Virus record (IMG/VR): IMGVR_UViG_2909288124_000003 | Coordinates: 1-52,915 of that record | Source: a virus | Lineage: Duplodnaviria > Heunggongvirae > Uroviricota > Caudoviricetes | DNA length: 52,915 nt | Direction: 5' to 3' (one strand) | Shown: one piece after another, positions 25,773 through 52,915 of the stretch | Numbering within the stretch: the stretch's first letter is position 1 | How the letters are laid out: each line of letters starts with the position of its first letter | Program-made: the position numbers and the translations under genes | The notes under the pieces: model-generated | The model's database searches: none | What the model was told of the DNA's origin: nothing | Seen by the model: the letters and a program-made list of their open reading frames with translations, nothing else

Positions 25773-26210
25773 GTTGCCAGTTTTCAATGAAGATAATGCG
25801 GGCAAAAAAAGCCTGCTCGGACGAACAGGCATGAAAAATAACAATACCGTCAAGGAGGTGGCGCCGGGTGCCTCCCGGTGGAACAGCCCCAGCCGACTAG
25901 TTCCGCGCAAACAAACCTGGACAAAAAAGTTTGACTGGACGCCCCGCCGCATAGGGGGATTCACCACGAACCAAAAGATAAAATCATCCGGTGACCGGGG
26001 CAATATCTAACCGGAACTTTTCAGAATCACTTATTGTTTCCTGGAGAGTACATGAGCGTTGGTGAATTCACGTGATGCTTTTGGATGAGCGCTGAACCCA
26101 AAGGTCAGTATTTTCACACAGCAATTTTGCAAAAAGCAGCGCCCATTCAAAACCAGGTCGCTTTCCAGTCACTCCGGGGACCCCATCATCGCAGACCGAA
26201 AAGCTTAAAC

Positions 26211-26285
<75 letters not shown>

Positions 26286-26288
26286 ATA

Positions 26289-26364
<76 letters not shown>

Positions 26365-26366
26365 AG

Positions 26367-26440
26367 TGGTCCGCCACCGGAGCCTCGAACCCCGTACCAC
26401 AACACCTGGGTTGCCGCTCTTCCCGATGAGCTAGTGGCGG
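26367..26440 (-). tRNA. tRNA-like sequence with non-canonical anticodon arm (possible pseudo-tRNA or unusual tRNA)
   Basis: Canonical acceptor, D and T arms and CCA, but the anticodon stem pairs only with a 6-nt loop (CCAGGU) in my manual fold; 74 nt. Confidence 0.4.
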
Positions 26441-26442
26441 TC

Positions 26443-26519
26443 TGGTGGCCCTTGCTGGACTTGAACCAGCGACCGGGCGATTATGAGTCGCACGCTCTAA
26501 CCAACTGAGCTAAAGGGCC
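26443..26519 (-). tRNA. tRNA with CAU anticodon, tRNA-Ile2 (lysidine) type
   Basis: Anticodon loop CUCAUAA; sequence resembles E. coli ileX-type tRNA rather than initiator or elongator Met. Confidence 0.65.
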
Positions 26520-45702: not shown

Positions 45703-47226
45703 ATGAAACGTGCCATTTCTTACATCAGGTTTTCATCTGAGAAGCAATCCCGAGGTGATTCACTACGCAGACAGTCTAAGATGGTTAATGACTGGCTTAA
45801 GGCTCATCCTGAGTACTACCTTGACCAAGATTTATCCTTCCGTGATTTGGGGGTGAGTGGGTTCACTGGTAAGCACTTGAAAGGTGGCTTAGGTGACTTC
45901 TTAACCGCTATCGAGAAAGGGCTTGTTAAAGCTGGTGATACACTACTAATCGAGAGTTTAGACCGTCTGTCACGTCAAGATGTAGACCAAGCAAGCGAGC
46001 TACTCAGAAACATTCTTCGCTCTGGTGTAGATGTAGTCACCCTGTCCGATGGTGAACATTACACAAAAGAGAGTTTAAAAGACCCGTTAGCTCTGATTAA
46101 AAGCATTTTGATAATGCAACGAGCGCATGAGGAATCATTACGTAAGGCTGAGCGTATCCAAGCTGCATGGGATGCAAAGAAAGAAGCTGCTAAAGCTGGT
46201 ATCAAGATTTCTAGGCGTTGTCCTGCATGGCTTAAGCTTAATGATGACCGTAAAAGCTTCTCTGTGATACCTGAGAAAGTGGAGACTGTGAAGAGGTGCT
46301 TTCAGCTACGGTTAGAGGGTAAGTCTATCTGGGAGATTGTCAGAACTCTTAATGCTGAAGGTCACCGGTCGATGAACCAATACAAGCCGGGTAAGTTTGG
46401 TCAAACCTCAGTGCAAGACCTTTTGAAGAATCGCTCTGTAATTGGATACTTTACCCCGAAAGGCTGTGAAGAGATATCTGGTTATTATCCTGCAATTATA
46501 GATGAAACAACATTCTACAAAGTTCAACAACTATCACATTCTCGTTATGGAAAGAGGTCTGTTTCAGATAAACCATTGAGTGTGAATCTCTTTAAAGGTG
46601 TTATCCGTTGTTCTGAATGTGGTCATGCTCTGATTATCACAGGCTTTAGCGATACAAGAAACGGGATTTATCGTTGTCCTCTTCGTAATGAAAACCGTTG
46701 CAATGCCAAAGGGCTGTCACGTAAGCAAACCGATGGTACATTACTTGCCCTGCTATCTCGTCTTGACCGATTTGATAGCGATATGACGAATGTCATTGAT
46801 GCATTGAAGCTACACCGTGAACACATCTCAAACAATATTGAAAAGCTGGTACAGCTATCACTTGAAATTGAAGATTTGTCAGCTATTACCATCAAACTAA
46901 AGCAGTTAAAAGGTGAGCTATCACAGGTTGATGCGGATATCGAGAAGGAGACACAACGCCTTAAATCTATTGATGTGGGGTGTTTGTCTGATTGTGACTT
47001 GACTACAAAGGCGGGAAGGATTGAAGCACAACTGATAATCAAAAGTGCTGTTAAAGAGGTCGTTTTAAATACTGCTAAACGTCGCTGTAAAGTAACTTTT
47101 CACAATAGTAAGTCAATCACCCTACCAATAACAGAAAACCCCTCAGAGGACGTTACAGAGGCTATACAGTCGCTTTCTGAAGTCACTGAGAGGGGGTTGA
47201 TAGATGTTGATGAGGTTATCATATAG
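45703..47226 (+). CDS. Large serine recombinase (serine integrase) of a second integrated element
   Basis: N-terminal resolvase-type catalytic region (ISYIRFSSEKQ), recombinase and zinc-ribbon region (CSECGH...CPLRNENRC), coiled-coil C-terminus; sits at the junction with yecE. Confidence 0.8.
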   Translation: MKRAISYIRFSSEKQSRGDSLRRQSKMVNDWLKAHPEYYLDQDLSFRDLGVSGFTGKHLKGGLGDFLTAIEKGLVKAGDTLLIESLDRLSRQDVDQASELLRNILRSGVDVVTLSDGEHYTKESLKDPLALIKSILIMQRAHEESLRKAERIQAAWDAKKEAAKAGIKISRRCPAWLKLNDDRKSFSVIPEKVETVKRCFQLRLEGKSIWEIVRTLNAEGHRSMNQYKPGKFGQTSVQDLLKNRSVIGYFTPKGCEEISGYYPAIIDETTFYKVQQLSHSRYGKRSVSDKPLSVNLFKGVIRCSECGHALIITGFSDTRNGIYRCPLRNENRCNAKGLSRKQTDGTLLALLSRLDRFDSDMTNVIDALKLHREHISNNIEKLVQLSLEIEDLSAITIKLKQLKGELSQVDADIEKETQRLKSIDVGCLSDCDLTTKAGRIEAQLIIKSAVKEVVLNTAKRRCKVTFHNSKSITLPITENPSEDVTEAIQSLSEVTERGLIDVDEVII

Positions 47227-47240
47227 TTGAGATTCTATCG

Positions 47241-48014
47241 TCAGTAGCGCTTGTGAGGATTCACAGACAGCCTCTTCAAAACATTACCTGTACCAGCATT
47301 ATTAAGCACCTTTGCAGCTTGCTCATTAGCGGCATCTGAGAAGGTGCTTTTTCCATTCTCAACTTTGACACTTCTACCACAATTGATACGGGCTTGAAGT
47401 TGCTCATTAGAAAGTTCACTCGTAGAGCGATTATATAGCTCCTGACACAGCAACATACCATTACCTAAACTTGTTGTAGTGTTCCCTGTATTCTTTTTAC
47501 TGGTAGCACCACCATCATTTGTGGTAGCCGTTTTGCCAGTAGCAGCCGAAATATCCGTTTGACCTACGATTGAACGAAACTCTACACCTTGGAAGGTCAT
47601 CTGAATACGAAGACCATTAGCAATGGTATGCTCTTTACTCGCTTTAAACTGAGTAATGATACTATCAGTGATAGATATTCCATCTTTACAAACAATAGTG
47701 ATGATTTGCTTCTGGTCTCGCCATTGTTCAACCGTAGAAATAAAGGTCTCTACAAGTTGCCCCTGTCTGGTTAATAGAACTGAACCCGTCGAATCAACCA
47801 CTACAACACCGCTAATAGAGATGGTCTTAGGTGCTCTCTGAACATTATCAGTGATAGTTTGCCCCGATTGCATAGCCTGAGTTGTCACCATCATCGGTGA
47901 GTCATAGTCCATCTGTTCAGTAGCTGTTAAGGCAAGAAAAGATTCTACATTATCTCTAAGGTGAAAATAGATACCATCTTTACCTGAATATCTAATTTGC
48001 TTTGTGTCAAACAT
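47241..48014 (-). CDS. Hypothetical protein (possible tail component) of element 2
   Basis: 257-aa ORF downstream of the tape-measure gene in an AT-rich region. Confidence 0.4.
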
Positions 48015-48033
48015 TGTTGTTATTCCTATTCTG

Positions 48034-48098
48034 TTAAGCGTGAGCTACGTGAAATCTAATTTTTGATGTTGGTATCTGTTCAGAAGATTTCACGTAGC
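48034..48098. repeat. Conserved intergenic palindromic element, copy A
   Basis: TTAAGCGTGAGCTACGTGAAATC and GATTTCACGTAGC (13-bp perfect inverted repeat) flank a 29-bp spacer, about 20 bp upstream of the RBS of the 48014..47241 gene. Confidence 0.6.
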
Positions 48099-48187
48099 AT
48101 TCGACTATTCATAGTTGAATCGTCATACTAGATAAAGATTAATAGATTGCCATGTGTGGCAATAAATATTAGTAGTTCTAACATTGT

Positions 48188-50269
48188 TTATTCCTCTGGG
48201 TAAGCTGAGCTAATCAAGGTATCTTCCTGCATACGATTAATATGCGATGTGGTTCTTTCATCAATAACCTTTCCATCAAGTACCGTCTGAGTTGTGATAT
48301 TGATTGTCTGAGGCTGAATATTTACTGACGGCTTGATAACCTTTAAATCTTGTGTGAATGTTTCCACTCGACCTTTCAGATTATTTAATGCTTCATGTGA
48401 AATCTGTGGAACATCTTTTGATTTGCCATGAACCATAGCCCATAAAACAGCGGCTAAAGAGTTCATGTCACCAGTCAATGCTTGGTCTGTGGGTTCCACC
48501 TTTGACCTTACAACTTTGTCAATTGGATTATCTGACTTACTCATCTGACGTTCATAGAACGGTTTAACAATGGAGTTAATCACATCAGTTGCCATACCGA
48601 CAATCATTACTTTGGTAATTGCATCAGCTACAGATAATTTTCCTTTACCACCTTCAACACTACCAGTACCAGAACGTGAATTGATTCTTCCCGCTGCTGT
48701 ATTTGCGACATTTCCAAGCGTGGAAATAGCCCTAATTAAGTTCCAGATACCACCTACAGCACCAATACCAGACCTTACAGCGACAATACCAGCAAGTCCC
48801 TTTAATGCACTTAACAGGCCATTTGCGATACCATCAGCTACAGCTTTTTGAGTGTCATTTAATTCTCTGTAAGCAAGGGTCACTCTGTCAAAGAATCCCT
48901 GCACTCGGTAGCTAATCGTGGTTAAATCATCAATACCGTTTGACATGCTTTTCATCAGGTCGCCAAAATGTTCACCAAGACTTTTAGATTGACCACCTAG
49001 TGAATTAAGTAAATTAGTCAGTGACCTTGTAAAATCTACCAGACCTTCCTGTGAACCATCGAACATTAAGGCCAGATTATTATTCCATGAATTACTTAAG
49101 CGGCCTAACTGCGTCTGAGTAGAGTTAATAATCTTTTCCCATCCACCAGCTTTATCAATCATCCTTCCCATTTCAGCGGATACTTTAGGAAGAACATCTT
49201 TAGAAAGAACCTTACCGTCTTTCATGGCCTTGTCTAATTCTTCCGTAGTCATCCCAAGACTTCTGGCAAATAACTGGAAAGCACCTGCCATTCTGTCCCC
49301 TAACTGACCGCGTAATTCTTCAGCCTGAATCTTTCCTTTAGATGCCATCTGCTCGAAAGCTTTTAAAATCCCGTTAATTTCATCGGTGCTTAGCCCCATT
49401 AATCTGGATGTACCAATCACATTACTAAATAGGGATTCTTTCTGGCCTGCATCCATATCACCAGCACCAGCGGAAAACTTAGCAAAACTGCTTAATGTTT
49501 CAATCTGGTCTACACCACTACTATCAGCAAGATTCTTAACAAATTCTGTAGCTCGTTTAGCACCTTCATCACCTAAAACGAATTGTGCCGCTCGTTGTGA
49601 TGCTTCTTTTTTCAGACCAACTTCCATAACCTTCCTATAAGCTTCTAAGGCTGTCTGAAAACTATAAATGGCTGTACCTGCTTTGATTGCACTTGTAGCT
49701 AATACATCTAAACCATTTGAAGCATTTTCACTGTGATTGTTTTTGCTGGTGGTCTTGTTAAACTTAGAAAGTGTTTCACGTAGATTTTGATTTAACTTTG
49801 CTAACTCACGATTAAAAGCTTCGTTCCCAAGTGTCTTGGATTTACTAGCTAGCCCATAAAACTGGCTCTTAATGTATTTCTCGACAATTGGGTTAAGACC
49901 TTTCAGCTTGGTCATATTAGCTGAATAAGCTGCTGTGATTGCTCTGTTGCCGCTAATTCGTGGCTGTCTTGATTGTTTTGGAGGATTAACAGTGTCATTA
50001 AATCTGGTGGCAAACTGAAATGCTTTTGTGCTTTTTGCTCTCTGTTCAATCTTGTCAAAGGTCTTATTAAACTTCCTTTCAAGTTGCCCTAAAGAGCTTG
50101 TCAGATTGCTGTCAAGTTGCTTGGTATCGACCTTAAACGCCCTATTCAAATTACGTTCAATTCTTTGTGCTGACTGCAAAGCTGCCTTTTCAACTCTTTG
50201 CAGACCTTTAATAACGTTCTCGCTGAAGCCTAGTTCAACGATAAACGAATCAACTGTGAATTTGCTCAT
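48188..50269 (-). CDS. Tail tape measure protein of element 2
   Basis: 693-aa helical protein with the conserved tape-measure block (KGKIQAEELRGQLGDRMAGAFQLFARSLGMTTEELDKAMKDGKV). Confidence 0.7.
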   Translation of the reverse strand: MSKFTVDSFIVELGFSENVIKGLQRVEKAALQSAQRIERNLNRAFKVDTKQLDSNLTSSLGQLERKFNKTFDKIEQRAKSTKAFQFATRFNDTVNPPKQSRQPRISGNRAITAAYSANMTKLKGLNPIVEKYIKSQFYGLASKSKTLGNEAFNRELAKLNQNLRETLSKFNKTTSKNNHSENASNGLDVLATSAIKAGTAIYSFQTALEAYRKVMEVGLKKEASQRAAQFVLGDEGAKRATEFVKNLADSSGVDQIETLSSFAKFSAGAGDMDAGQKESLFSNVIGTSRLMGLSTDEINGILKAFEQMASKGKIQAEELRGQLGDRMAGAFQLFARSLGMTTEELDKAMKDGKVLSKDVLPKVSAEMGRMIDKAGGWEKIINSTQTQLGRLSNSWNNNLALMFDGSQEGLVDFTRSLTNLLNSLGGQSKSLGEHFGDLMKSMSNGIDDLTTISYRVQGFFDRVTLAYRELNDTQKAVADGIANGLLSALKGLAGIVAVRSGIGAVGGIWNLIRAISTLGNVANTAAGRINSRSGTGSVEGGKGKLSVADAITKVMIVGMATDVINSIVKPFYERQMSKSDNPIDKVVRSKVEPTDQALTGDMNSLAAVLWAMVHGKSKDVPQISHEALNNLKGRVETFTQDLKVIKPSVNIQPQTINITTQTVLDGKVIDERTTSHINRMQEDTLISSAYPEE

Positions 50270-50287
50270 TGTTCATATTTCACCTCT

Positions 50288-50352
50288 TTAAGCGTGAGCT
50301 ACGTAAAAAATAATTTTTGGTGGGTATATCTGTTCAGAAGATTTCACGTAGC
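50288..50352. repeat. Conserved intergenic palindromic element, copy B
   Basis: Same element as 48034..48098 (shared TTAAGCGTGAGCTACGT and TCTGTTCAGAAGATTTCACGTAGC), about 20 bp upstream of the tape-measure RBS. Confidence 0.6.
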
Positions 50353-50436
50353 ACACATACAAAAAAGGGAGAAACTACCGAATAATATCGATAATCTCTC
50401 CCCGTGTTATAGATTCGATTAGAAGCTAATCTCAAA

Positions 50437-50652
50437 TTAATGCCTGACAAGATAATGTAGTTCCGTTTCACCTATGATTTGAGCATCAGAAGGAATACGG
50501 TCGATACACCATTTTGGAATCTTGCGTGTTTTTGGTTTGCGTGAGGTGATAATTTGATGTTTGGTTTTAATTCTTAAGGCTGGCTTAGTTTGTAACTTTA
50601 AGTTTTCACAAACAGACTTAATAGTTTCATAGCGTTCTGTTAAATCAATCAT
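50437..50652 (-). CDS. Hypothetical small basic protein
   Basis: 71-aa ORF in element 2. Confidence 0.35.
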   Translation of the reverse strand: MIDLTERYETIKSVCENLKLQTKPALRIKTKHQIITSRKPKTRKIPKWCIDRIPSDAQIIGETELHYLVRH

Positions 50653-50674
50653 TCATCACCTCACATATGCATAA

Positions 50675-51379
50675 TTAAACAGCCTTGCTAAATTCTCGTG
50701 GAACACTCAGAAAATCATTGAAGCTGATAATCTGTGCCAACTCTTGACGGTACTCCTTAGCCAGCGCTTGATGGTCACTAATCAGCTTAGCCAGTCTTGA
50801 TTTCAGCAAATTAATCTCATTTTCTCTTGCTTTCATCAGTTTCTCTTTGGCAATTTCTTCAAGCTCAGCTTGTGATTTATCAGCAACAATTAGAGACAGT
50901 CGATGTGGTGCTCTGACAGCTCTTTCTGTACGAACAACTCTTTGACCTTCTGGTAAATCTGCAATCACTTTACCAATCTCTACAGGGTCATACCCCCAAC
51001 CGTCACGGTCTAGTCGAGAGAAATAAGCATAAGAATTGGTTTGAAGCTCCATCAAAATAGCCATTTCGTCAATTTCGTCTTCAAGCTTGGACTGAATTTT
51101 CTCGTAAACACTTCTCATTGCTTCTTGAGAGTCTCGAAGGTCTTTGAAATATTTGCGTTGCAGCTTCAGTTTCAAATCAAGCTCACATTCCTCATTCATC
51201 GAAAAATCAATTTCAACTCTTGGAATCTCGATTGGTTCTGGTGGAATATATGGACCTTTATTTACTTCGTGCGATTCCCGCCAAGCTCTATCAAAAGATT
51301 CACGCAAAGTTAATTCGTGAATATCAAGTGCACTTGGTCTGTTCTCAACAATCATTTCGTGTTCATTACGAATGGACAT
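50675..51379 (-). CDS. Hypothetical protein (coiled-coil C-terminus)
   Basis: 234-aa ORF in element 2. Confidence 0.4.
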   Translation of the reverse strand: MSIRNEHEMIVENRPSALDIHELTLRESFDRAWRESHEVNKGPYIPPEPIEIPRVEIDFSMNEECELDLKLKLQRKYFKDLRDSQEAMRSVYEKIQSKLEDEIDEMAILMELQTNSYAYFSRLDRDGWGYDPVEIGKVIADLPEGQRVVRTERAVRAPHRLSLIVADKSQAELEEIAKEKLMKARENEINLLKSRLAKLISDHQALAKEYRQELAQIISFNDFLSVPREFSKAV

Positions 51380-51934
51380 TAATATTTTCCTCTTCTAAGA
51401 TAATTTATGTTTCAGTTTTTAAAAAGCACACCTGACAGCCTATCTAAACTTAGAAGAGACTTAAAAGGCGGTTTGCCAAGTATGCTTTTTAAAAGCTGAA
51501 AAAAGCCCTAAACATAATCTGTGAAGGGCTTTGGAGGTTTGCTTTATAACGTTAACGAAGTTTCAGGAAAAACTTTCTTTAAGAGTTCTGCTTAAAAGCT
51601 CTTAAAGAAAGCCCTAACTCATGATTAGGGCAAAGCTGTAAGGATTCAATAACGAATGAACAAAGACTTTTTGAGATAGCCTCTCAGACTAAACTGAAAG
51701 GCCATGACGAAAAGCATTGCACCTTTCCAACTCAGAATATAGTTATCATCGATGTAGAACGATTAATAGTTTAATTCAAGGAGAATTGCTCTCCTCATAT
51801 ATACAATTATGTCATGCTCAAGGTTATTTGTCAACAGCTTTTAACAGATTGGTAACATCAATTTTTATTTACCGTGTTGCCCACCCAGCAACCAACAAAT
51901 AAACCCAAAGCTGTCCAAGCAATTATTAAGCCCA

Positions 51935-52258
51935 TTAATGCACCACCTTCGAATCCGTAACCAAAACATTGTCAGCGTACAAAATTACTATAGCCGCCTT
52001 GAGATATTTTTCAGGGCTAATGCTGTATTTGTTCGTTTGCTCGATAACCAATCTTTTCATGTTTGAGTCGCTAACGGGAAACATAAAACGTGGTTCACCA
52101 GTTTCAATTTCCTGAATAAAATCTTCAATTGCTTCTGAGTTTTCAGCCATCAGCTTTAACAGCCTGTCAAAGTCAATGCTAATACCTGCATCAGTGAAGC
52201 TTTGCACCATCATAGCAGTGTCGGTATCAATAAAAATTTGTAATGGGTAACTGTTCAT
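51935..52258 (-). CDS. Hypothetical acidic protein
   Basis: 107-aa ORF in element 2. Confidence 0.35.
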   Translation of the reverse strand: MNSYPLQIFIDTDTAMMVQSFTDAGISIDFDRLLKLMAENSEAIEDFIQEIETGEPRFMFPVSDSNMKRLVIEQTNKYSISPEKYLKAAIVILYADNVLVTDSKVVH

Positions 52259-52415
52259 TTCTTAAAATCTCCTTTTTCACCAGACCTCCTCAATCGCTCT
52301 GTAACGAGCTAAACAGTCTTTTTCAGGGGTAGCCTGTACAGTGGTATTACCCACCCTAAAATAAGATAGTTTTTTGCGTTAGAATGCGATTGAGAGCGTC
52401 TGAGAAGCTGTTTTT

Positions 52416-52703
52416 CTAATTTCTCTTAAAGTCTCGGACTTGCATAAGATTTTTTGGTCTGGTATCGGCTCTGTTACCATTTCGATGGATAATTTGCTTG
52501 TTGGATTGATAGCCATGATAAAGAAACCAGACAACATATTTCACGTAGAAAGTGTATCGGCCTATATTAAATGTTTTGTTGCCGTAGTCGTCGGTATTTA
52601 TCGTGACTGACTCTCCATCAGACCAGCACAGGGAATCACTGGATTCATCATAGATAAGGTGTTCTGTAAAATATCGCCTAACATCTTCATGCCAAGGTTT
52701 CAT
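52416..52703 (-). CDS. HNH endonuclease-like protein
   Basis: IIHRNGNRADTRPKNL resembles the HNH H-N-N motif; ATGA overlap with the upstream ORF. Confidence 0.45.
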   Translation of the reverse strand: MKPWHEDVRRYFTEHLIYDESSDSLCWSDGESVTINTDDYGNKTFNIGRYTFYVKYVVWFLYHGYQSNKQIIHRNGNRADTRPKNLMQVRDFKRN

Positions 52704-52915
52704 AAAACCTCCTCACCCCAATAACCTAATTCAATCTTGTGACGCTCAAACCATTCTGGCTTGACTGCTGCTTTCAGTGTTTCATTTGGGCCAATGGCTT
52801 TAATGAAAATATCTTTTGAGTTATGGATGTCACCGAATCCGTTTCCTTCAATCAGGAGGTCGGAGATGTAGCGAATCATTTTATCTGTGTGGTATTCAAA
52901 GGTAACGCATAGCAT
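52700..52915 (-). CDS. Hypothetical protein (possibly 5'-truncated by the window edge)
   Basis: ORF begins with ATG exactly at the window end and is translationally coupled to the HNH-like gene. Confidence 0.3.
   Translation of the reverse strand: MLCVTFEYHTDKMIRYISDLLIEGNGFGDIHNSKDIFIKAIGPNETLKAAVKPEWFERHKIELGYWGEEVL

Follow-up and report, generated by a model that had tools for sequence, protein, structure and literature searches.

In layout, the described system closest to the locus reported here is the PR′–6S RNA–tR′ late leader of lambdoid phages, where a strong, seemingly constitutive sigma-70 promoter leads to a short terminated transcript (194 nucleotides (nt) for lambda 6S RNA, a predicted ~195 nt here), structural genes stand right behind the terminator and the promoter is directly preceded by a small gene. 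The immunity region of satellite P4 (PLE leader, CI RNA and seqA/seqB/seqC) likewise belongs to an integrated satellite-like element and joins a constitutive promoter to a structured leader with a premature end, the leader RNA being a possible regulator. In RNase III-processed leaders that mask a Shine–Dalgarno (SD) sequence, such as the lambda N leader, the 5′ untranslated region (UTR) of Escherichia coli adhE and T7 early messenger RNAs, a long near-perfect duplex lies 5′ of a gene whose SD pairs with the leader; RNase III cleavage of the lambda N or adhE leaders parts the anti-SD from the SD. The boxB hairpin of lambda nut and the put sites of HK022 are conserved promoter-proximal hairpins upstream of terminators. 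Here we analyse the unannotated gap at positions 51380-51934 of a 52,915-nt stretch of DNA (IMG/VR record IMGVR_UViG_2909288124_000003, positions 1 to 52,915; the window). The window is a segment of the E. coli chromosome, and the gap lies in its second element, an ~11-kb island between tonB and yciI.

We propose, with a probability of roughly 55%, that the gap contains the promoter and 5′ leader, acting as an attenuator, of a tail-gene operon on the minus strand, together with the terminated RNAs that this leader would give. The feature is most likely a regulatory RNA locus and not a replication origin. A sequence-only reading of the window had suggested a regulatory hub, a non-coding RNA locus or an origin; the first two gain comparative support from a promoter, compensatory base changes, a G·U signature, terminator-like hairpins and co-variation between an anti-SD and the SD.

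Predicted promoter and leader

All genes around the gap are on the minus strand and, since the gap lies between two of them, it has to be read on that strand. Its promoter matches the sigma-70 consensus at 11 of 12 positions and is the top promoter match in the whole island. Among 80 related loci the promoter orientation is identical throughout, the −35 hexamer is TTGACA in 79, the spacer is nearly invariant and the −10 hexamer reads CATAAT or GATGAT. As judged from the −10 position, transcription is predicted to start at ~51799 (±2), ahead of the following features (dG, folding free energy; aa, amino acids).

51806..51834, minus strand: sigma-70-type promoter; −35 TTGACA (51834-51829), 17-nt spacer with TG (extended −10), −10 CATAAT (51811-51806)
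about 51799→51380, minus strand: leader RNA of ~420 nt, from the predicted start to the gene
51778..51796, minus strand: P1, 5′-proximal hairpin GAGGAGA-GCAAU-UCUCCUU
from P1 to the block, minus strand: variable stretch
51699..51727, minus strand: invariant block of 29 nt, GAAAGGUGCAAUGCUUUUCGUCAUGGCCU
51666..51715, minus strand: P3, extended hairpin (AUGGCCUUUCAG / CUGAGAGGCUAU; lower stem CUUUU/AAAAG)
51604..51631, minus strand: T2, terminator-like hairpin GCCCUAAU-CAUGA-GUUAGGGC, then UUUCUUU; dG −11.4
51572..51612, minus strand: P5, 13-16-bp hairpin (UUUCUUUAAGAG / CUCUUAAAGAAAG) whose 5′ arm is the T2 U-tract; dG −16.9
51496..51532, minus strand: T1, terminator-like hairpin AAAGCCCU...AGGGCUUU, then UUUCAG; dG −14.0
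51410..51501, minus strand: P8, long hairpin with 28-nt arms, its 5′ arm beginning in the T1 U-tract; dG −40.2
51459-51449, minus strand: anti-SD UCUCUUCUAAG in the P8 loop
51399-51389, minus strand: SD region CUUAGAAGAGG, complementary to the P8 loop
51379-51377, minus strand: ATG of the 234-aa gene, the first of the tail operon

No sigma-70-like site was found between the predicted start and the ATG in any of 67 distinct leaders; the simplest route of transcription into the tail operon is therefore across the terminator hairpins. In a search for shared operators, the gap promoter had only the −35 hexamer and 3 nt in common with the divergent promoter region of the island.

The block lies ~72 nt from the predicted start and can form a 7-bp hairpin with the loop GCAAU, which competes with the lower stem of P3. 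It also overlaps a mini open reading frame (ORF; 51646-51717, minus strand) with an SD-like AAGGUG and an AUG, encoding MLFVMA and then variable residues whose number differs with the P3 variant (3, 6 or 17, for a total of 9, 12 or 23 aa). Its first six codons are invariant even at third positions, and selection therefore appears to act at the nucleotide level, although the product may be a leader peptide. Attenuation by such a peptide was set aside, because the length of this ORF and the position of its stop vary and leave no consistent geometry between ribosome and terminator.

Upstream of the promoter, within the gap yet outside the RNA leader, lies a second mini-ORF of 25 codons (51858..51935, minus strand; MGLIIAWTALGLFVGCWVGNTVNKN), whose hydrophobic product is possibly a small membrane protein, conceivably acting like a toxin or a holin. 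Its ATG overlaps the stop codon of the 107-aa gene (TAATG), and this arrangement indicates translational coupling. The reading frame is open in 80/80 related loci, as this 25-aa allele or a 21-aa allele (MELVIICFVLIGMIAGASIKV), but is unannotated in RefSeq. The initial view of the gap as free of ORFs thus holds for the non-coding part, 51380-51857, and fails for 51858-51935. The gap was also described as AT-rich, which is true to a moderate degree (G+C content 0.34-0.35, compared with 0.40 in the island part of the window).

Conservation of the locus

The gap occurs in 477/5426 complete E. coli genomes (~9%), in each case chromosomal and without annotation; carrier strains include NIID080884, KV7 and O55:H7 TB182A. 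Escherichia albertii, the sole other species returned by a scan with the 234-aa protein, has the gap too, and its block is identical. The 80 related loci comprise 14 obtained by BLAST or a protein search (L001-L014) and 66 (L015-L080) collected with the invariant block as bait, exact-match scans yielding 6 IMG/VR and 60 metagenome loci. Among the 14 BLAST-collected loci, the block has a mean pairwise nucleotide identity of 0.976 and the promoter segment one of 0.82, compared with values of 0.60 and 0.75 in the genes for the 234-aa and 107-aa proteins, respectively. The core of the leader is hence better conserved than its flanking genes, so that lack of conservation, which would have spoken against a regulatory locus, does not apply. 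This holds within an island family that is strongly mosaic, with aa identities of 42-94% for the tape measure, 55-100% for the Dit-like protein and 22-100% for the 234-aa gene, and with two integrase types. Leader and block are present in one copy per locus, always ahead of the tape-measure operon.

BLAST of the gap against 50,697 phage records returned just four 33-nt AT-rich chance matches in Klebsiella phages. As no phage record carries the gap sequence, a shared cos/pac site or a promoter of helper type was rejected. An Rfam scan had been suggested at the outset. Rfam 15, run with both gathering and permissive cut-offs on the window, on the region and on the full copy of the island, gave nothing relevant, and no family was matched. 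Sub-threshold matches on the long hairpin were to plant or animal microRNA-precursor models only, the best scoring 27-34 bits against a cut-off of 90.

Conserved structure of the minus-strand RNA

The minus strand of the leader folds with −134.9 kcal/mol (z = −7.6 versus shuffles) and the plus strand with −117.7 kcal/mol (z = −5.4). RNAalifold, applied to 59 distinct leaders, returned 14 compensated pairs and predicted the hairpins P1, P3 and P8 as well as that of the block. We then specified a structure comprising P1, P3, T2, P5, T1, P8 and the loop:SD helix. In the same 59 leaders, 95.7% of its 5258 pair cells are paired, versus 38-61% when the 3′ partners are slid by 1-3 columns, and 13 pairs are changed on both sides. 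The covariation score was 0.141 versus 0.104 in shuffles, none of 500 reaching the observed value.

The substitutions also tell the strands apart. There are 626 G·U cells versus 90 A·C cells, and the helices are 95.7% paired when read as minus-strand RNA versus 85.5% as plus-strand RNA. This excess and the strand asymmetry argue for selection on a minus-strand RNA rather than on duplex DNA.

Individual helices follow the same pattern. In P1, three of the seven pairs have changes on both sides (for example, GC in 37 leaders and AU in 20). Three versions of the apical stem of P3 stay paired (UG:40, AU:14, CG:5), and their exchanges between GU and GC fit a minus-strand RNA only. P5 has 13-nt arms that are 100% complementary in the window, and 98.9% of its cells are paired across the leaders. 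Two sequence types of P8 (32 versus 27 leaders) are fully compensated at five pairs, and a third type also occurs. In the divergent locus L080 the T2 stem is compensated (GCCCUCA/UGAGGGC), P5 is kept with different arms and T1 is kept. The block hairpin is not informed by covariation, because the block is invariant.

Terminator-like hairpins

Both hairpins of the sequence-only reading are found where it had placed them. The first corresponds to T1, with plus-strand AAAGCCCT (51502-51509) pairing with AGGGCTTT (51525-51532); the second corresponds to T2, formed by GCCCTAA (51611-51617), CTCATGA and TTAGGGC (51625-51631), in agreement with a minus-strand terminator scan. The proposed two-copy unit exists as well, as (T/C)TTAAAAGCT at 51488-51497 and 51591-51600 and as AA(A/G)AAAGCCCTAA at 51499-51511 and 51605-51617, with a spacing of 103-106 nt. 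Each copy, ~104 nt from the other, consists of a terminator-like hairpin, its U-tract and the beginning of the next hairpin. Although both units are real in the window, the second is dispensable: 13/67 distinct homologues have a single hairpin. The motif AGCCCT-N(3-30)-AGGGCT occurs once in the 52.9-kb window versus 0.04 times expected. A dispersed repeat resembling repetitive extragenic palindromes was considered for this GC hairpin and rejected, as it is not dispersed and each locus has a single leader.

T2 has an 8-bp stem with four G-C pairs (core GCCCUAA…UUAGGGC) and a 5-nt loop; the terminator scan detected it both in the window and in the full island copy, L001. The stem of T1 is also 8 bp long; its 15-nt loop, with a 3-bp inner stem, is beyond the loop limit of the scan. 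The T1 stem is followed by UUUUUUCAG, giving six consecutive U including the stem's own UUU. Both hairpins thus combine a G+C-rich stem with a U-rich tract 3′ of it, as in intrinsic terminators, and are expected from these features to end transcripts, giving RNAs of ~195 nt (T2) and ~300 nt (T1).

Of the 67 distinct leaders, 54 have two GCCCY...RGGGY hairpins with a T-tract. Among the 13 with a single hairpin, 11 have at least four T in the next 8 nt and two have a weaker tail, so that 65/67 leaders contain at least one hairpin with ≥4 T in 8 nt. T2 is present in about 80% of the distinct leaders.

The hairpins also vary in ways that leave their stems intact or recombine them. In many loci the 7-nt loop of T2 is inverted (TCATGAG versus CTCATGA; window 51611-51631 and homologues) while the stem is unchanged, and in the recombinant L061 the 5′ arm of T2 is joined to the 3′ arm of T1. 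Both point to events in the DNA itself, either template switching mediated by the hairpins or recombination. The T1 loop of relatives carries inserts of 0, 11 or 30 nt. Three optional hairpin inserts of 27-30 nt share the pattern GAGG(A/U)…hairpin…CCGAA (L008, L011, L014, L016, L001, L005 and others). They occupy the equivalents of window positions ~51798, ~51728 and, in the T1 loop, ~51516, independently and in every combination, and were not found elsewhere in the 748 kb of collected loci. The inserts may be copies of a hairpin that binds a protein, or a tiny mobile module.

Pairing of the P8 loop with the Shine–Dalgarno region

In 67/67 leaders, 8-13 nt of the P8 loop are complementary to the SD region of the 234-aa gene. 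In the window alone, the 11-nt match is modestly unusual, being reached by 32 of 1000 shuffles. Across the leaders, however, anti-SD and SD co-vary in three sequence families, as in leaders that sequester an SD.

Family 1, P8 loop / SD region: UCUUCUAAG / CUUAGAAGA
Family 2, P8 loop / SD region: UUCACCUCU / AGAGGUGAA
Family 3, P8 loop / SD region: AUUCACCUC / GAGGUGAAU

On the basis of this co-variation, we propose that the pairing represses translation of the 234-aa gene. The P8 duplex is, by its length, a plausible RNase III substrate, and a cut in it would part the anti-SD from the SD.

Comparison with described systems

The resemblance to the lambdoid PR′ leader may extend to the initial transcribed region, where −10-like hexamers are followed by G-rich triplets (TATATAGGG, AATTATGGG, GTAATAGGG), a possible counterpart of a sigma-dependent pause element. 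The island leader differs in being much longer and more structured, in having two terminators and SD sequestration and in lacking sequence similarity to phages. A Q-family protein, the defining feature of the lambdoid module, was not found for the 107-aa gene product in Pfam, PHROGs, NCBIfam, PDB or Foldseek, nor was there such a match among the other island proteins; membership of that module is therefore not claimed.

From P4 the island differs in being unrelated and in having a serine integrase, an O-like Rep and tail genes. No match to the C4 antisense RNA (RF01695-type) was obtained at the gathering score, at E≤10 in the region or at E≤0.01 across the island; repeats of seqA/seqC type complementary to the block were likewise absent, and no complementarity to the block within the island exceeds 9 nt. 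Compared with the RNase III-processed leaders, the anti-SD is located in a hairpin loop, as in a pseudoknot, dependence on RNase III is suggested by duplex length, and there is no sequence similarity. The block, with its 7-bp stem and 5-nt G-rich loop (GCAAU), recalls boxB and put, whereas the island encodes no arginine-rich N-like protein (the 107-aa neighbour is acidic) and no boxA was recognized.

Alternative explanations

The same promoter and T2, with T1 as back-up, could constitute a stand-alone gene for a trans-acting small RNA (sRNA) of ~195-300 nt, for example an immunity or anti-helper RNA with the block or a linker as seed, while the tail operon is transcribed separately, for instance from a promoter used during phage infection. 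This would account for a strong conserved promoter with a canonical intrinsic terminator ~195 nt later, for the sRNA-typical succession of 5′ hairpin, structured body and U-tail, and for a 29-nt block that is invariant amid mosaic surroundings. Yet the co-varying structure does not stop at T2 or T1 and extends as far as the SD of the following gene, which is unexpected if function ended at the terminator, and no downstream promoter is predicted. Nor did the searches uncover a partner: island complementarities end at 9-mers, which are at chance level, no phage record matched on either strand at E≤1, and no Rfam family, C4/CI antisense RNAs included, was found. We consider an independent sRNA unlikely, although it overlaps in part with the attenuator that we favour, since the terminated RNAs may act in trans in a manner compatible with the cis model. 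Somewhat harder to sustain is a passive boundary, in which T2 and T1 terminate the upstream operon (the 107-aa gene and the 25-codon mini-ORF), the other hairpins are neutral or stabilizing features of a 5′ UTR and the covariation is inherited from few ancestral recombinant types. The sequences are indeed closely related mosaics with most double changes in two or three inherited haplotypes, the loops are unstable at the DNA level (inversion, indels, the T2/T1 recombinant) and one unit is dispensable. In such a boundary, terminators would not be expected 230-330 nt past the upstream stop codon with a near-consensus promoter in between. Moreover, independent haplotypes keep P1, P3, P8, T2 (in L080) and the loop:SD pairing, with a strand-specific G·U bias, and the block is much more conserved than the adjoining genes.

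A function of the DNA itself, as replication origin, packaging (pac/cos) site or recombinase site whose repeats and hairpins bind proteins or form cruciforms, is highly improbable. The gap is AT-richer than its surroundings (G+C 0.34 versus 0.40), direct and inverted repeats are present, and in many islands an HNH endonuclease gene lies close by; in some phages an HNH gene accompanies the cos site. Against these points, the two direct-repeat copies, ~104 nt apart and one of them dispensable, fall short of the three or more tandem copies of an iteron origin; nothing is shared with the 50,697 phage records, as a common cos/pac site would require; the swaps between G·U and G-C and the strand asymmetry indicate selection on RNA; and an invertible segment is contradicted by the promoter, which points the same way in all 80 loci. 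The suggestion of an origin also fails on a better candidate 3 kb away: the O-like rep gene encloses, at L001 23056-23143, four tandem 22-nt iterons (GTMAAaaATTTTGACTSASTGR-like), which, by their sequence and an arrangement like that of lambda ori, are probably the origin of the island. Given these iterons, and a composition profile without special skew at the gap, the gap was rejected as origin.

Several observations also weigh against the attenuator that we favour. The invariance of the block in the metagenome set is owed to its use as bait, a bias from which the BLAST set and E. albertii are free. Most leaders are close relatives, so that much of the covariation reflects few inherited events (two or three sequence types), and the tested structure, being derived from the fold of the window, has an advantage over the slid controls. 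Five single-unit variants (L002, L014, L050, L059 and L073) have a poor U-tract, UAUUCAG or, in L050, CAUUCAG, and the T1 loop, 15 nt in the window, is as long as 45 nt in relatives, so that termination cannot be the decisive step in every case. A promoter specific to a helper phage could sit undetected downstream of T1. Furthermore, no antiterminator, late activator or RNA-binding protein is recognizable among the island proteins, and the AlphaFold model of the 107-aa protein is poor (pLDDT, predicted local distance difference test, 60.8) and without a Foldseek match at E≤0.001. Finally, start site, terminated products and read-through are predictions from sequence.

The island and its genes

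The full island copy is L001 (NZ_AP027185; island span L001 14409-25110); the window contains its part 45703-52915, with the following genes.

45703-47226, plus strand: large serine integrase
50675-51379, minus strand: 234-aa gene, first of the tail operon, followed on the same strand by the 71-aa gene, the tape measure gene and the Dit-like gene
far side of the gap from the tail operon, minus strand: genes for the 107-aa protein and an HNH endonuclease

Past the window end follow several small unknown proteins, the O-like replication initiator and a small serine invertase. The HNH gene is close to the gap in many islands. No capsid or terminase gene is present in the island, despite its integrase, Rep with iterons and tail genes. 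Several metagenome contigs carrying the island are 11-12 kb long. The best phage relatives of the tape measure protein are Felix-O1-like coliphages (30% aa identity over the full length), and the Dit-like gene is 75% identical to these phages (Felixounavirus) at the nucleotide level. The element has the look of a satellite or of an island for tail interference, with virulent Felix-O1-like phages as its apparent target. No paper describing the island or its RNA was retrieved by literature searches, and the island appears to be undescribed, though widespread.

PADLOC, NCBIfam, Pfam and PHROGs detected no defence system, regulator or antiterminator among the island proteins. The 107-aa gene has 3327 homologues, all annotated 'hypothetical' and all from Escherichia or Shigella, and its acidic product has no Pfam, PHROGs, NCBIfam or PDB sequence match. 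With no PDB sequence match, a low-confidence model and no fold match, it was rejected as a candidate antiterminator. Some alleles of the 234-aa gene (L003, L007, L008, L011, L013) are named 'transposase' in RefSeq; no NCBIfam model backs this label for the alleles tested, and tblastn found no phage homologue.

Elsewhere in the window, the lambdoid prophage part contains tRNA-Met, tRNA-Thr and tRNA-Gly genes and an Rfam match to the sRNA STnc100 (25800-26519, minus strand). At 26367-26440, ARAGORN also called an odd tRNA-like gene, with an 'anticodon' of two bases, that is absent from the Rfam results.

Discussion

Promoter, helices, terminator-like hairpins and loop:SD pairing can be joined into a model of the leader, for which we infer from these elements transcription itself, termination at T2 and T1, and the step and signal of regulation. 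RNA polymerase would start at the strong sigma-70 promoter near 51799 and make a highly folded leader of about 420 nt. Most transcripts would stop at the tandem T2 and T1, giving stable RNAs of ~195 and ~300 nt and insulating the 234-aa gene, the 71-aa gene, the tape measure and the Dit-like protein from this promoter and from the upstream operon. In transcripts that read through, pairing of the P8 loop with the SD region of the 234-aa gene would add further silencing. To switch on the tail genes, a signal would then have to suppress termination, open or cleave P8, or do both. It could be provided by a factor, encoded by the island or by a phage, that acts on the invariant 5′ domain, or by RNase III cutting the 28-bp P8 duplex.

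A more specific version is a long shot. In it, the invariant 5′ domain (P1, block and P3) would be a sensor RNA for infection by virulent Felix-O1-like phages: binding of a phage or island factor would cause read-through of T2 and T1 and unlock the ribosome-binding site (RBS), and the otherwise silent ~11-kb island would make tape-measure and baseplate-type proteins that hijack or poison the tails of the invader. If true, E. coli would harbour a new class of satellites or tail-interference islands directed at lytic phages, with induction controlled by an RNA-gated switch.

Attenuation or antitermination and SD masking are well known, and the advance is therefore the element and not the principle. 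If the attenuator model is correct, the leader controls the sole recognizable structural module, tape measure and Dit-like protein, of a widespread island. Its promoter, two terminators, masked RBS and 29-nt block would offer a testable handle on how the island is kept silent and how it is activated, and the E. coli accessory genome would gain a new cis-regulatory RNA, possibly also an sRNA.

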